NCBI RefSeq assembly: GCF_003334765.1
Contig: NZ_QOWT01000008.1
DNA: 64,000 nt
From: Escherichia coli
Lineage (GTDB): Bacteria; Pseudomonadota; Gammaproteobacteria; Enterobacterales; Enterobacteriaceae
Reading direction: 5' to 3' (one strand)
The number at the start of each line of letters is the position of its first letter. The first letter of the stretch is position 1. Shown here piece by piece: positions 6,255 to 63,744 of the stretch. Below the pieces are notes generated by a model. That model saw nothing but the letters and a program-made list of their open reading frames with translations, did not search any database and was not told the origin of the DNA. The translations under genes and the position numbers were made by a program.

Positions 6255-6317
6255 ACATCCGGCACACCAGACAGCAAAAGATTTTAAAACGTTAATTCAC
6301 ACCCAGGAGTGATAAAG

Positions 6318-7031
6318 ATGCAAAAGCAAGCTGAGTTGTATCGTGGTAAAGCGAAAACCGTATACAGCACGGAAAACCCGGACCTGTTGGTGCTCGAATT
6401 CCGCAATGATACGTCAGCAGGGGATGGCGCGCGCATTGAGCAGTTTGATCGCAAAGGTATGGTGAACAACAAGTTCAACTACTTCATTATGAGCAAACTG
6501 GCTGAAGCGGGTATCCCGACTCAAATGGAGCGTCTGCTCTCCGATACCGAATGTCTGGTGAAAAAGCTGGATATGGTGCCGGTTGAGTGTGTCGTGCGTA
6601 ACCGTGCTGCTGGCTCTCTGGTGAAACGTCTTGGAATCGAAGAAGGTATTGAGCTGAACCCGCCGCTGTTCGATCTGTTCCTGAAAAACGACGCCATGCA
6701 CGATCCGATGGTCAACGAATCTTACTGCGAAACCTTTGGCTGGGTGAGCAAAGAGAACCTGGCGCGTATGAAAGAGCTGACCTACAAAGCGAACGACGTG
6801 CTGAAAAAACTGTTCGATGATGCTGGTCTGATTCTGGTCGACTTCAAGCTGGAATTTGGTCTGTACAAAGGCGAAGTGGTACTGGGTGATGAGTTCTCCC
6901 CGGACGGTAGCCGCCTGTGGGACAAAGAAACGCTGGAGAAAATGGACAAAGACCGTTTCCGCCAGAGCCTCGGTGGCCTGATCGAAGCCTATGAAGCCGT
7001 CGCCCGCCGCCTGGGTGTACAGCTGGACTGA
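6318..7031 (+). CDS. purC: Phosphoribosylaminoimidazole-succinocarboxamide (SAICAR) synthase
   Basis: 237 codons from ATG 6318 ([16 protein letters not shown]...), GGAG RBS upstream; recognised PurC. Confidence 0.9.
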
Positions 7032-7198
7032 TTTTTCTGTTCATCATCTTGCCGTGCAGCTGGCACGGCAAGACAACCGCTCTCGGAATATATGCATTGA
7101 ACGCTCATTCCTCCGCCATTTCATCCCGCTTTCCTGTGGTAATCTTCCTCTGAACCACCTACGATCATTTCTATAATGAATATATTGTTGAGGTATCT

Positions 7199-13129: not shown

Positions 13130-13190
13130 TTCCTGAGACAAAGTACAAACAGCAAGAACCCGCTGAGCAGGTTCTTAATCGGAAAGTTGA

Positions 13191-13226
13191 AAAAGGCGAC
13201 ACATTGGCATGTCGCCTTTTTTATTG
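13191..13226. terminator. Bidirectional rho-independent terminator (acrD / ypfM)
   Basis: Stem GGCGACA/TGTCGCC with 8-nt loop, flanked by AAAAA on one side and TTTTTT on the other; lies between convergent ypfM and acrD. Confidence 0.65.
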
Positions 13227-25558: not shown

Positions 25559-27838
25559 ATGGATGACCAGTTAAAACAAAGTGCACTTGATTTCCATGAA
25601 TTTCCAGTTCCAGGGAAAATCCAGGTTTCTCCAACCAAGCCTCTGGCAACACAGCGCGATCTGGCGCTGGCCTACTCACCAGGCGTTGCCGCACCTTGTC
25701 TTGAAATCGAAAAAGACCCGTTAAAAGCCTACAAATATACCGCCCGCGGTAACCTGGTGGCGGTGATCTCTAACGGTACGGCGGTGCTGGGGTTAGGCAA
25801 CATTGGCGCGCTGGCAGGCAAACCGGTGATGGAAGGCAAGGGCGTTCTGTTTAAGAAATTCGCCGGGATTGATGTATTTGACATTGAAGTTGACGAACTC
25901 GACCCGGACAAATTTATTGAAGTTGTCGCCGCGCTCGAACCAACCTTCGGCGGCATCAACCTCGAAGACATTAAAGCGCCAGAATGTTTCTATATTGAAC
26001 AGAAACTGCGCGAGCGGATGAATATTCCGGTATTCCACGACGATCAGCACGGCACGGCAATTATCAGCACTGCCGCCATCCTCAACGGCTTGCGCGTGGT
26101 GGAGAAAAACATCTCCGACGTGCGGATGGTGGTTTCCGGCGCGGGTGCCGCAGCAATCGCCTGTATGAACCTGCTGGTAGCGCTGGGTCTGCAAAAACAT
26201 AACATCGTGGTTTGCGATTCAAAAGGCGTTATCTATCAGGGCCGTGAGCCAAACATGGCGGAAACCAAAGCCGCATATGCGGTGGTGGATGACGGCAAAC
26301 GTACCCTCGATGATGTGATTGAAGGCGCGGATATTTTCCTGGGCTGTTCCGGCCCGAAAGTGCTGACCCAGGAAATGGTGAAGAAAATGGCTCGTGCGCC
26401 AATGATCCTGGCGCTGGCGAACCCGGAACCGGAAATTCTGCCGCCGCTGGCGAAAGAAGTGCGTCCGGATGCCATCATTTGCACCGGTCGTTCTGACTAT
26501 CCGAACCAGGTGAACAACGTCCTGTGCTTCCCGTTCATCTTCCGTGGCGCGCTGGACGTTGGCGCAACCGCCATCAACGAAGAGATGAAACTGGCGGCGG
26601 TACGTGCGATTGCAGAACTCGCCCATGCGGAACAGAGCGAAGTGGTGGCTTCAGCGTATGGCGATCAGGATCTGAGCTTTGGTCCGGAATACATCATTCC
26701 AAAACCGTTTGATCCGCGCTTGATCGTTAAGATCGCTCCTGCGGTCGCTAAAGCCGCGATGGAGTCGGGCGTGGCGACTCGTCCGATTGCTGATTTCGAC
26801 GTCTACATCGACAAGCTGACTGAGTTCGTTTACAAAACCAACCTGTTTATGAAGCCGATTTTCTCCCAGGCTCGCAAAGCGCCGAAGCGCGTTGTTCTGC
26901 CGGAAGGGGAAGAGGCGCGCGTTCTGCATGCCACTCAGGAACTGGTAACGCTGGGACTGGCGAAACCGATCCTTATCGGTCGTCCGAACGTGATCGAAAT
27001 GCGCATTCAGAAACTGGGCTTGCAGATCAAAGCGGGCGTTGATTTTGAGATCGTCAATAACGAATCCGATCCGCGCTTTAAAGAGTACTGGACCGAATAC
27101 TTCCAGATCATGAAGCGTCGCGGCGTCACTCAGGAACAGGCGCAGCGGGCGCTGATCAGTAACCCGACAGTGATCGGCGCGATCATGGTTCAGCGTGGGG
27201 AAGCCGATGCAATGATTTGCGGTACGGTGGGTGATTATCATGAACATTTTAGCGTGGTGAAAAATGTCTTTGGTTATCGCGATGGCGTTCACACCGCAGG
27301 TGCCATGAACGCGCTGCTGCTGCCGAGTGGTAACACCTTTATTGCCGATACATATGTTAATGATGAACCGGATGCAGAAGAGCTGGCGGAGATCACCTTG
27401 ATGGCGGCAGAAACTGTCCGTCGTTTTGGTATTGAGCCGCGCGTTGCTTTGTTGTCGCACTCCAACTTTGGTTCTTCTGACTGCCCGTCGTCGAGCAAAA
27501 TGCGTCAGGCGCTGGAACTGGTCAGGGAACGTGCACCAGAACTGATGATTGATGGTGAAATGCACGGCGATGCAGCGCTGGTGGAAGCGATTCGCAACGA
27601 CCGTATGCCGGACAGCTCTTTGAAAGGTTCCGCCAATATTCTGGTGATGCCGAACATGGAAGCTGCCCGCATTAGTTACAACTTACTGCGTGTTTCCAGC
27701 TCGGAAGGTGTGACTGTCGGCCCGGTGCTGATGGGTGTGGCGAAACCGGTTCACGTGTTAACGCCGATCGCATCGGTGCGTCGTATCGTCAACATGGTGG
27801 CGCTGGCCGTGGTAGAAGCGCAAACCCAACCGCTGTAA
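25559..27838 (+). CDS. maeB: NADP-dependent malic enzyme (malic enzyme fused to PTA-like domain)
   Basis: 759-aa ORF; N-terminal malic enzyme domain plus C-terminal phosphotransacetylase-like domain; recognised MaeB. Confidence 0.9.
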
Positions 27839-27880
27839 TTTTTTTAACTCTCACGCTTACCCTGAATATTCAGGGTAAGC

Positions 27881-28129
27881 AGTTTAGCTGCAATATATTA
27901 GTAAAGCTTATTACTGAGTTTGCGAATAATAAAAAAAAGCAGTCTATATAATATCTCGATATTATTTTATTTATATTCATGCGTTGCATATGAAAGTTTA
28001 TGCACCACAGCGAATATCTCTCCATTCTTAGTGATCTACCTCACCTTTTAAACGCGCTTGCCGAATTTTGTTATTTACTCTGACGAAAAATTGTCACGAT
28101 ACACGAAAGTTTTTCACAGGCGGCGACTC
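27881..28129 (+). promoter_or_regulatory. AT-rich eut operon promoter region
   Basis: About 250 bp AT-rich non-coding stretch immediately upstream of eutS; expected location of the main eut promoter; no motif mapped with confidence. Confidence 0.35.
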
Positions 28130-28465
28130 ATGGATAAAGAACGCATCATTCAGGAATTTGTGCCCGGCAAACAGGTCACACTGGCGCATCTCATCGCGCA
28201 TCCCGGTGAGGAACTGGCGAAGAAAATCGGCGTTCCGGATGCGGGCGCAATTGGCATTATGACGCTAACTCCCGGCGAAACGGCGATGATCGCCGGTGAT
28301 TTAGCGCTGAAAGCCGCTGATGTGCATATCGGTTTTCTCGACCGATTCAGCGGTGCATTGGTGATTTATGGCTCGGTGGGCGCAGTAGAAGAAGCGTTAT
28401 CACAAACCGTCAGCGGTTTAGGTCGCTTATTAAATTATACGCTTTGTGAAATGACCAAAAGTTAA
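28130..28465 (+). CDS. eutS: Ethanolamine utilization microcompartment shell protein EutS
   Basis: 111 codons from ATG 28130 ([21 protein letters not shown]...); BMC-domain shell protein; first gene of eut operon. Confidence 0.85.
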
Positions 28466-41404: not shown

Positions 41405-41416
41405 CGGAGGTTGCCG

Positions 41417-41917
41417 ATGATCAATGCACTGGGATTGCTGGAAGTGGACGGCATGGTCGCCGCGATAGATGCAGCGGATGCCATGCTCAAAGCAGCTAAC
41501 GTTCGTCTGCTCAGTCACGAAGTGCTTGACCCTGGTCGCTTAACGCTGGTGGTGGAAGGCGATCTGGCGGCGTGTCGTGCGGCGCTGGACGCAGGTTGTG
41601 CTGCCGCGATGCGTACCGGGCGTGTCATCAGCCGCAAGGAGATCGGTCGGCCAGACGATGACACCCAGTGGCTGGTTACTGGCTTTAACCGCCAGCCGAA
41701 GCAACCCGTAAGGGAACCCGACGCGCCAGTTATCGTCGCGGAATCTGCTGACGAGTTGTTGGCGCTGTTAACATCAGTACGTCAGGGAATGACGGCAGGA
41801 GAAGTGGCTGCCCACTTTGGCTGGCCGCTGGAAAAAGCCAGAAATGCGCTCGAACAGCTCTTTTCTGCCGGGACGTTACGTAAACGCAGTAGTCGTTATC
41901 GTCTCAAGCCCCATTAA
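41417..41917 (+). CDS. eutK: Microcompartment shell protein EutK (BMC domain plus C-terminal helix-turn-helix-like tail)
   Basis: 166 codons from ATG 41417 (MINALGLLEVDGMVAAIDAADAMLKAANV...). Confidence 0.85.
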   Translation: MINALGLLEVDGMVAAIDAADAMLKAANVRLLSHEVLDPGRLTLVVEGDLAACRAALDAGCAAAMRTGRVISRKEIGRPDDDTQWLVTGFNRQPKQPVREPDAPVIVAESADELLALLTSVRQGMTAGEVAAHFGWPLEKARNALEQLFSAGTLRKRSSRYRLKPH

Positions 41918-41962
41918 CCTGTCGGAGGTGCCGGGTGTCCTACAACACCCGGCATTAACATC

Positions 41963-43015
41963 ATGAAAAAGACCCGTACAGCCAATTTGCACCATCTTTA
42001 TCATGAACCCTTACCCGAAAACCTGAAGCTCACGCCGAAGGTCGAAGTGGATAATGTTCATCAACGACAGACAACGGATGTCTATGAACATGCTTTAACG
42101 ATTACCGCCTGGCAGCAGATTTACGATCAGCTGCATCCGGGCAAGTTTCATGGTGAATTTACGGAAATTCTACTCGATGATATTCAGGTTTTTCGTGAAT
42201 ACACCGGTCTGGCGCTGCGTCAGTCGTGCCTGGTCTGGCCGAACTCGTTCTGGTTTGGCATTCCGGCGACGCGCGGTGAGCAGGGATTTATCGGTTCGCA
42301 ATGTCTGGGAAGCGCGGAAATCGCCACCCGCCCTGGTGGCACTGAATTTGAACTGAGCACGCCGGATGATTACACGATCCTGGGCGTGGTGCTTTCTGAA
42401 GATGTCATCACCCGGCAGGCTAACTTTTTGCATAACCCGGATCGGGTATTACATATGTTGCGTAACCAGTCGGCGCTGGAAGTGAAAGAGCAGCATAAAG
42501 CCGCGCTGTGGGGCTTTGTCCAACAGGCGCTGGCGACGTTTTGCGAGAATCCGGAAAATCTCCATCAGCCTGCAGTGCGAAAAGTGCTGGGGGATAATTT
42601 GCTAATGGCGATGGGGGCCATGCTGGAAGAAGCGCAACCAATGGTGACGGCGGAAAGCATCAGTCATCAGAGTTACCGTCGATTGCTTTCCCGCGCCCGT
42701 GAATATGTGCTGGAAAACATGTCCGAACCGGTGACGGTGCTGGATTTGTGTAATCAACTGCATGTCAGCCGCCGCACGCTACAAAACGCGTTTCACGCTA
42801 TTTTAGGCATTGGCCCGAACGCGTGGCTGAAACGCATTCGCCTGAACGCCGTACGCCGCGAACTGATAAGTCCGTGGTCGCAAAGTATGACGGTAAAAGA
42901 CGCCGCCATGCAGTGGGGATTCTGGCATCTGGGGCAATTTGCCACGGATTACCAGCAGCTGTTTTCCGAGAAGCCGTCACTGACGCTGCATCAGCGGATG
43001 CGGGAGTGGGGGTGA
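41963..43015 (+). CDS. eutR: AraC-family transcriptional activator EutR
   Basis: 350-aa ORF with C-terminal AraC-type HTH; last gene of eut operon. Confidence 0.9.
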
Positions 43016-45928: not shown

Positions 45929-46504
45929 ATGAAATCGCTGCGTTTAATGTTATGCGCTATGCCATTGATGCTGACCGGCTGTTCCACGATGTCGTCAGTT
46001 AACTGGTCTGCCGCTAACCCGTGGAACTGGTTTGGGTCGTCCACCAAAGTGAGCGAGCAGGGCGTGGGTGAATTAACGGCGTCCACACCACTGCAAGAAC
46101 AAGCCATTGCCGATGCGCTTGATGGCGATTATCGCCTGCGCAGCGGAATGAAAACCGCGAACGGCAACGTGGTGCGCTTTTTTGAAGTGATGAAGGGCGA
46201 CAACGTGGCGATGGTGATTAACGGCGATCAAGGCACGATCAGTCGCATTGACGTGCTGGATAGCGATATTCCTGCTGACACCGGTGTTAAAATCGGTACA
46301 CCGTTTAGCGACCTTTACAGCAAAGCATTTGGCAATTGCCAAAAAGCTGATGGTGATGATAATCGTGCCGTCGAATGTAAAGCCGAAGGCAGTCAACATA
46401 TTAGCTACCAGTTCAGCGGGGAATGGCGTGGTCCTGAAGGGTTAATGCCTTCGGACGATACCCTGAAAAACTGGAAAGTCAGTAAAATTATCTGGCGGCG
46501 TTAA
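45929..46504 (+). CDS. yfeY: Lipoprotein YfeY (DUF1131)
   Basis: 191-aa ORF with signal peptide and lipobox LTGC. Confidence 0.8.
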   Translation: MKSLRLMLCAMPLMLTGCSTMSSVNWSAANPWNWFGSSTKVSEQGVGELTASTPLQEQAIADALDGDYRLRSGMKTANGNVVRFFEVMKGDNVAMVINGDQGTISRIDVLDSDIPADTGVKIGTPFSDLYSKAFGNCQKADGDDNRAVECKAEGSQHISYQFSGEWRGPEGLMPSDDTLKNWKVSKIIWRR

Positions 46505-60759: not shown

Positions 60760-60787
60760 AAAAATGGCGCCGATGGGCGCCATTTTT
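60757..60787. terminator. Bidirectional rho-independent terminator (pdxK / crr)
   Basis: Stem TGGCGCC/GGCGCCA with 4-nt loop, flanked by AAAAAAA and TTTTT; lies between convergent pdxK and crr. Confidence 0.65.
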
Positions 60788-63712: not shown

Positions 63713-63744
63713 ACAAAAAAGCACCTAAAAAGGTGCTTTTTTAC
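63713..63744 (-). terminator. Rho-independent terminator downstream of cysK
   Basis: Stem AGCACCT/AGGTGCT with AAAA loop, flanked by A-tract and T-tract; 20 nt beyond the cysK stop on the reverse strand. Confidence 0.6.

Follow-up and report, generated by a model that had tools for sequence, protein, structure and literature searches.

Organization of the maeB-eutS spacer

The window analyzed here, i.e. the whole stretch of 64,000 nucleotides of Escherichia coli DNA, contains maeB, which codes for the NADP-dependent malic enzyme, with eutS of the ethanolamine (eut) operon downstream of it. A 361-bp query from this locus is 100% identical to the corresponding segment of DH5alpha (E. coli K-12), where the RefSeq annotation places maeB on one side and eutS on the other. 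The window is K-12 sequence, yet it differs from MG1655 in the length of a T run in the short spacer after maeB (27839-27845): seven T are present in the window and in DH5alpha and eight in MG1655 (NC_000913.3), while other E. coli have TTCTTTTTT or TTCATTCTT there.

The spacer is marked by the palindrome GCTTACCCTGAATATTCAGGGTAAGC, with two 13-nt arms that are 100% complementary and have 0 nt between them, which in MG1655 occupies NC_000913.3 2576055-2576080. An earlier note on this DNA had described it as a perfect 26-bp palindrome lying 17 bp after the maeB stop and about 250 bp upstream of eutS, and each of these statements is correct: 16 bases intervene, so that base 17 past the stop is the first of the palindrome, and the eutS ATG at 28130 is 250 nt past its last base. 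The tail that follows, AGTTTAGC, is as weak as had been claimed. The further remark that TTTTT precedes the palindrome holds in part: the run exists, with seven T, but it is not adjacent and ends 9 nt before the palindrome. The features of the spacer are collected in Table 1.

Table 1. Features of maeB and the maeB-eutS spacer in window coordinates
Feature	Position	Strand	Basis and remarks
maeB CDS (NADP-dependent malic enzyme)	25559..27838	+	ORF list and RefSeq annotation of the identical DH5alpha segment; stop TAA 27836-27838
Stop-to-hairpin spacer, 16 nt, with T run	27839..27854	+	polymorphic within E. coli
Palindrome/hairpin	27855..27880	+	5' arm 27855-27865, AUAU loop 27866-27869, 3' arm 27870-27880
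Weak interrupted U tract AGUUUAGC, polymorphic hot spot	27881..27888	+	tail comparison
C-rich, G-poor untranslated stretch, candidate rut region	28000..28060	+	composition: C16/G5 in 28006-28055
Published Rho termination region coordinate	28075	+	Adams et al. 2021, PMC7815308, mapped from MG1655 NC_000913.3 2575860 (minus strand)

Alignment across genera places a conserved block of ~105 nt directly upstream of eutS (~28020-28129), and the hairpin therefore sits at a terminator position, outside the conserved eutS control region. Between the hairpin and this block lies an AT-rich segment of ~100-140 nt (27885-28020), which is specific to Escherichia; in Citrobacter, Klebsiella, Yokenella and Pseudocitrobacter it is missing, and the entire maeB-eutS spacer spans just ~160 nt there. 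The eutS block contains a CRP-like GTGA-N6-TCAC motif at 28031-28044 and a direct repeat, ACGAAAAATTGTCAC / ACGAAAGTTTTTCAC, at 28083-28097 and 28103-28117, which, more speculatively, is possibly a candidate site for EutR, a regulator of the AraC type.

The palindrome at the DNA and RNA levels

This is the longest perfect palindrome of the 64-kb window, the runner-up having 16 bp. Arms of more than 11 nt were seen in none of 200 first-order Markov shuffles of the window, and 30 shuffles produced a single case of a perfect 11-bp stem with a 4-nt loop; the length of the palindrome is far beyond chance. Palindromy beyond the perfect stem requires just a self-complementary 4-nt loop, which is a 1-in-16 event. 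Neither a second copy nor half-sites above chance were detected elsewhere in the window. The only other perfect palindrome in it with arms of at least 8 nt is the 16-bp TTTGGCAATTGCCAAA at 46328-46343.

In RNA form the palindrome gives an 11-bp stem (6 G-C pairs) with a 4-nt AUAU loop and a folding energy of -18 kcal/mol (z = -6.7), and this fold is available from either strand. Across the forms found in E. coli the stem has 11-12 bp with 6-7 G-C pairs, and the energies run from -18 to -20.4 kcal/mol. It is the most stable local structure of the intergenic RNA, and is recovered in both the MFE and the centroid folds of the whole intergenic RNA. Perfect-stem hairpins just 3' of ORFs are common in the window, and the palindrome is in this respect an ordinary feature. 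Thus, a perfect 11-bp stem of ~-19 kcal/mol without a U tract (7047-7073) starts 16 nt past the stop of the ORF at 6309-7031, and a perfect 10-bp stem of similar energy (~-19 kcal/mol), again without a U tract (41929-41954), lies between the ORFs 41411-41917 and 41963-43015 of the late eut operon. Perfect 12-bp stems at 13190-13221, 60760-60787 and 63715-63742 have A runs upstream and T runs downstream, and by sequence have the look of bidirectional intrinsic terminators.

As a terminator, the maeB hairpin combines a stable G+C-containing stem-loop on the sense strand, 17 nt after the stop codon, with a deficient tail: the U-rich tract of ~7-8 nt expected after the stem is missing, there being 3 U in the 8 nt of AGUUUAGC. 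A consensus scan of 27600-28300 called neither a promoter nor a terminator, the latter because only three of the eight bases past the stem are T. With a d'Aubenton-Carafa-type terminator score, which was combined with modern folding energies and serves as a relative index only, the K-12 hairpin scores -33 as against +40 to +60 for the hairpins of Citrobacter and Klebsiella at the matching position, and every E. coli tail variant is likewise negative (-10 to -36). The description of the element as a poor canonical terminator is thereby upheld. A terminator read from the minus strand was ruled out: the minus-strand tail is GUGAGAGUUAAAAAAA, and K-12 has no convergent transcription here. Scanning 27600-28300 against Rfam 15 (E up to 10) returned chance-level matches only (E of at least 1.6), none of them at the gathering score.

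An invariant stem with a variable tail in E. coli

Searched with 32 nt centred on the palindrome, 5,410 of 5,426 complete E. coli genomes gave 5,411 records, 5,400 of which (99.8%) have at most one mismatch. The element is present in a single copy per genome, the two places reported for each being the two strands of one site, and no other copies were found across the 5,426 genomes. Since there are no further copies in these genomes or in the window, the palindrome is not a member of a repeat family or a regulon motif. The commonest mismatch falls at 27881, where most strains have G, which adds a C-G pair (27854/27881) and results in a 28-bp palindrome; K-12 and ~1,200 other E. coli genomes have A at this position.

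The tail behaves differently. A 36-nt query comprising the invariant 3' arm and 23 nt of tail matched 5,404 E. coli genomes: 1,334 without mismatch, 1,866 with one, 1,796 with two or three and 408 with four or more, such that 2,204 of the 5,404 differ at two or more positions. The tails directly 3' of the stem include GTTTAGC, GTTTGGC, GTCCAGC, GTTTTCC and GTTTTGC. Across lineages there are zero variable sites in the 26-28 bp of the palindrome against ~28% of the flanking sites within 25 nt (rough P ~2e-4, treating sites as independent). To judge from these counts, purifying selection acts on the stem when compared with the flanks next to it, and not on the U tract. The combination of an invariant stem and a freely varying tail is not predicted for a pure intrinsic terminator, and recognition of the stem by its sequence would fit it as well.

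Two kinds of rearrangement affect the locus. E. coli 19AR0656 (locus L007, 3060-3830) has an IS1 element directly after the maeB stop and lacks the hairpin together with eutS and the 5' portion of eutP. The variant stem of seven E. coli genomes is parted from eutS by an insertion of 1.7 kb, within which a family-4 glycosyltransferase gene runs convergently; eutS is displaced by ~2 kb, and the hairpin is still found 17 nt after maeB. One of these strains, MSB1_4I (locus L090, 9050-12150), has in addition to the 1.7-kb insertion an IS1 between eutS and eutP.

Terminator turnover in Enterobacteriaceae

The 3' flanks of maeB were collected from 80 Enterobacteriaceae species, and 79 loci were scored for terminators, with 48 of the 79 receiving a positive score. 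In 24 of the 79 eutS lies downstream of maeB, and a hairpin with a positive score and a T run is present in 21 of these 24, usually of the form GGCGCGGG-loop-CCCGCGCC followed by TTTTTTAT. In most of the 21, including Citrobacter, Klebsiella, Yokenella and Pseudocitrobacter, the hairpin starts 19-21 nt past the maeB stop and the spacer is ~160 nt long; a terminator of this kind occupies the corresponding position past maeB in Salmonella as well. The remaining three of the 24 are Escherichia lineages with a CGCTTACCC...GGGTAAGCG hairpin from nt 18, scores of -3.5 to -25.5 and spacers of 237-292 nt. Taking the Escherichia forms together, the hairpin starts at nt 17-18 past the maeB stop. Other elements occupy the flank in some species: copies of a CCCTCTCCC-loop-GGGAGAGGG repeat occur within the first 100 nt past maeB in Enterobacter, Leclercia, Pluralibacter and relatives, and REP-like GCCGGATAAG... 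elements stand in place of a simple terminator in others (loci bearing one or the other are L036, L045, L050, L059, L064, L066, L068, L080, L081 and L085).

Within Escherichia, the hairpin has diverged in ways that break the DNA palindrome, as seen in Escherichia sp. MOD1-EC7003 (CGCTTACTCTGGATTATTCGGGGTAAGCG), E. whittamii (CGCTTACCCTGAGTAATTCGGGGTAAGCG) and the rare MSB1_4I-type variant of seven E. coli genomes (CGCTTACCCTGTTTATTCGGGGTAAGCG). Seven Escherichia sequences could be compared, in which 97.6% of the stem cells pair on the plus strand. All three variable stem pairs have changed on one side only, giving a G.U pair on the plus strand and an A.C mismatch on the minus strand. Folded as plus-strand RNA, the variants gain 4-9 kcal/mol in stability over the minus-strand RNA (-16.3 vs -7.5, -19.6 vs -15.6 and -18.6 vs -14.1). 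The loop, of 3-6 nt in the predicted folds, is variable in sequence and is self-complementary in E. coli only. Conservation of the palindrome across enterobacteria, proposed earlier as a check, thus turned out negative: with loops differing and substitutions being one-sided, neither the symmetry nor the spacing of half-sites is kept outside E. coli. The stem is followed by ATTTTTAT in E. whittamii and GTTTTATT in Escherichia sp. MOD1-EC7003, and the U tracts of these sister lineages are better (AUUUUUAU and GUUUUAUU, respectively).

No compensatory double change is seen among the seven Escherichia sequences; ~3 wobble events that arose independently are opposed by a single contrary one, the C.A closing pair of K-12. 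That the set is small and free of compensatory pairs follows from the absence of E. albertii and E. fergusonii from the 80 genome loci and from the members of the MaeB 90% cluster. A metagenome scan for diverged variants of the hairpin gave three matches, all of them identical to the MSB1_4I-type variant.

Published data on Rho termination and on 3' ends

A Rho termination region of the class 'orphan' has been reported at MG1655 2575860 on the minus strand, with upstream/downstream reads in 800-nt windows of 161/21 without and 195/140 with bicyclomycin, a Rho score of 5.5 and a p of 1.5e-13 (Adams et al. 2021 eLife, PMC7815308, Supplementary file 2). The downstream/upstream ratio from these counts is 0.13 without and 0.72 with bicyclomycin. 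In the window the coordinate lies on the same strand as the hairpin, just past the C-rich part of the spacer (C16/G5 in 28006-28055); the palindrome ends 195 nt upstream of it and eutS begins 55 nt downstream. Rho prefers C over G, and the stretch 28000-28060 is, by its composition, a candidate region for Rho loading (rut). The locus has three attributes in common with Rho-dependent terminators that carry a protective 3' stem-loop: a stem-loop without a U tract, C-rich and G-poor RNA downstream of it, and bicyclomycin-sensitive read-through downstream on the same strand in the published data (PMC7815308). The bicyclomycin effect could stem from transcripts started within the spacer, such as a eutS leader, instead of from maeB read-through, as 800-nt windows fit both.

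The curated Term-seq tables of the same work (Adams et al. 2021, PMC7815308) contain no entry for maeB or for 25759xx-25761xx, hence no 3' end at the hairpin, which may merely reflect modest expression. The TERMITe supplements likewise contain no mapped maeB 3' end. In E. coli, Rho-terminated mRNAs are known to end at stable stem-loops without a U tract after trimming by PNPase and RNase II (Dar & Sorek 2018, PMC6061677). The same study indicated that terminators can switch type through their U content, and suggested cases with weak U tracts to be transition states between termination modes (PMC6061677).

Protein binding in the spacer

The only ChIP peak that we found in the maeB-eutS spacer is that of Nac, reported by ChIP-seq at U00096.2 2573898-2574145 with its centre at 2574048, i.e. 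-221 from eutS (Aquino et al. 2017, PMC5217608). On Nac induction eutS went up 3.8-fold and maeB was unchanged (PMC5217608). The peak centre corresponds to 27909 in the window, which is 29 nt beyond the end of the palindrome and 42 nt from its midpoint, within the Escherichia-specific AT-rich DNA. Matches to ATA-N9-TAT are present at 27948-27962 and 27951-27965, with a one-mismatch site at 27897-27911, and none fall inside the palindrome, which, given also the 42-nt distance of the peak centre, is ruled out as a Nac site. The peak and the eutS induction suggest nitrogen control of the eut operon by Nac. Published genomic SELEX lists eutS or the maeB-eutS spacer, at low resolution, for the RpoS holoenzyme and CRP.

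A mechanistic interpretation of the maeB hairpin

We propose that the palindrome acts as plus-strand RNA and forms the stem-loop with which the maeB mRNA ends: a leaky intrinsic terminator, poor in K-12 and of better quality in some relatives, and a barrier to 3' exonucleases, with Rho probably completing termination. To this reading we assign a probability of about 0.72. It draws on the structure, position, conservation pattern and strand bias of substitutions observed here, along with the Rho-sensitive region from the literature. From these we infer partial intrinsic termination, the rut site, exonuclease trimming and the identity of the Rho-sensitive RNA with maeB read-through. RNA polymerase proceeding past maeB would transcribe the 11-12-bp hairpin 17 nt after the stop, and, with just 3-4 interrupted U following the stem, the hairpin would be expected to free only a fraction of the polymerases. 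The others would enter ~250 nt of untranslated RNA, on which Rho may load at ~28000-28060 and terminate transcription near 28075, before eutS. The 3'-to-5' exonucleases PNPase and RNase II would then trim the tails back to the hairpin, thereby setting and protecting the mature 3' end of maeB. Jointly, the hairpin and Rho would insulate the eut operon from maeB transcription.

The earlier note had left the choice between an RNA stabilising hairpin and a dimeric regulator operator. The former finds support in the G.U substitutions on the plus strand, the terminators at this position in sister genera and the Rho region downstream. The latter would have a homodimer binding the two 13-bp half-sites, and regulating eut from ~-250 or acting as a roadblock to maeB read-through. 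Such an operator would account for a perfect dyad that is invariant in ~5,400 E. coli genomes between two variable flanks, and the spacer does bind proteins at the low resolution of the Nac ChIP-seq peak and of genomic SELEX for CRP and the RpoS holoenzyme. Yet neither symmetry nor half-site spacing survives in Escherichia sp. MOD1-EC7003, E. whittamii or the MSB1_4I-type strains, where pairing is kept in the plus-strand RNA alone. Moreover, sister genera have an unrelated GC-rich terminator stem at the same position, and the block upstream of eutS that is conserved across genera lies elsewhere (~28020-28129); the element stays 17 nt after maeB when an insertion moves eutS by ~2 kb, which links it to maeB and not to eutS. 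An operator is also at odds with the single copy per E. coli genome, the want of half-sites above chance in the window, the absence of a cognate regulator gene nearby and the position of the Nac peak, whose centre is 42 nt from that of the palindrome with all ATA-N9-TAT-type sites outside it. Among established operator consensuses (ARG box, Cra, RcsB, NarL 7-2-7, LexA, CRP, MqsA and HipB), none is known to fit the spacing of the palindrome, and a full-text search found CCCTGAATATTCAGGG in none of the papers covered. The plus-strand G.U changes, loop variation, U tracts of the sister lineages and linkage to maeB thus favor an RNA element of the maeB transcript over a dimeric operator, which we regard as very improbable. 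Equally faint is the chance that the invariance of the stem in ~5,400 E. coli genomes stems from sequence-specific recognition, for which a dimeric DNA-binding protein or an RNA-binding protein using the maeB hairpin would be candidates; if true, an RNA-binding protein on the hairpin would couple the fate of the malic-enzyme mRNA, or read-through, to expression of the ethanolamine operon.

Two other accounts may be considered. The long stem might offset the short U tract such that, for the most part, maeB transcription ends factor-independently at 27881-27888, the Rho signal belonging to other transcripts. Canonical terminators at the same position in sister genera, the better U tracts of E. 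whittamii and MOD1-EC7003 and the stability of the hairpin (z = -6.7) are in keeping with this, as is the fact that the RNA downstream cannot be traced to maeB from the bicyclomycin data. However, the K-12 tail has 3 U in 8 nt, the consensus scan is negative and E. coli tails score -10 to -36; one E. coli lineage has GUCCAGC, with the U tract essentially absent and the stem unchanged; and with Rho inhibited, the coverage downstream reaches 72% of that upstream. We therefore consider a self-sufficient intrinsic terminator unlikely. Rather unlikelier still would be a neutral relic, i.e. a stem that is the remnant of an ancestral terminator, or that arose through turnover of the local sequence, and that is without a function in E. 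coli today. The decayed and freely varying U tract, the remodelling of the Escherichia spacer by the extra ~100-140-nt AT-rich segment and the loss of the hairpin to an IS1 insertion in at least one strain point that way. Zero variable sites in 26-28 bp between flanks that are ~28% variable (the P of ~2e-4 is rough, sites being taken as independent) speak against it, as do the changes in other Escherichia, which preserve pairing.

Relationship to known systems

A protective role for the stem-loops of Rho-terminated mRNAs is reportedly a hypothesis of Peters et al. 2012. The maeB hairpin resembles the stem-loops of such mRNAs (PMC6061677) in its location just past the ORF, the lack of a U-rich tail, the excess of C over G downstream and the bicyclomycin-sensitive region. 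It differs from typical examples in that the stem is unusually perfect and the loop self-complementary, and the match to the class rests on sequence-level criteria. With the canonical terminators that follow maeB in Citrobacter, Klebsiella and Salmonella it shares place, strand, a similar stem energy and a TTTAA-type motif in the preceding spacer. Compared with those genera, E. coli has a stem that is unrelated in sequence, longer and richer in A-U, followed by a short, interrupted run of U, and most of the termination in the spacer is sensitive to Rho. REP/BIME elements and other repeated palindromes, which stabilise the mRNA upstream of them, are comparable as extragenic palindromes at gene 3' ends that are able to block 3' exonucleases, but the maeB palindrome is single-copy in each E. 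coli genome and has no REP consensus. The perfect dyad symmetry of 26-28 bp recalls operators of dimeric helix-turn-helix proteins; unlike these, the maeB palindrome has no promoter link, cognate regulator or second site, and its symmetry and spacing are not conserved across species.

The kind of hairpin is well known, and the maeB example itself was previously undescribed, with little weight beyond annotation; a possible use lies in engineering the eut microcompartment locus and in measuring read-through into eut. In E. coli, the hairpin probably marks where the maeB transcription unit ends and acts as an insulator between maeB and the eut operon. More generally, the locus illustrates the turnover of terminators: the sister genera have a canonical intrinsic terminator here, and Escherichia a long stem with a decaying U tract and a Rho region downstream. 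The Escherichia state is the kind of transition between termination modes that was proposed by Dar & Sorek (PMC6061677).
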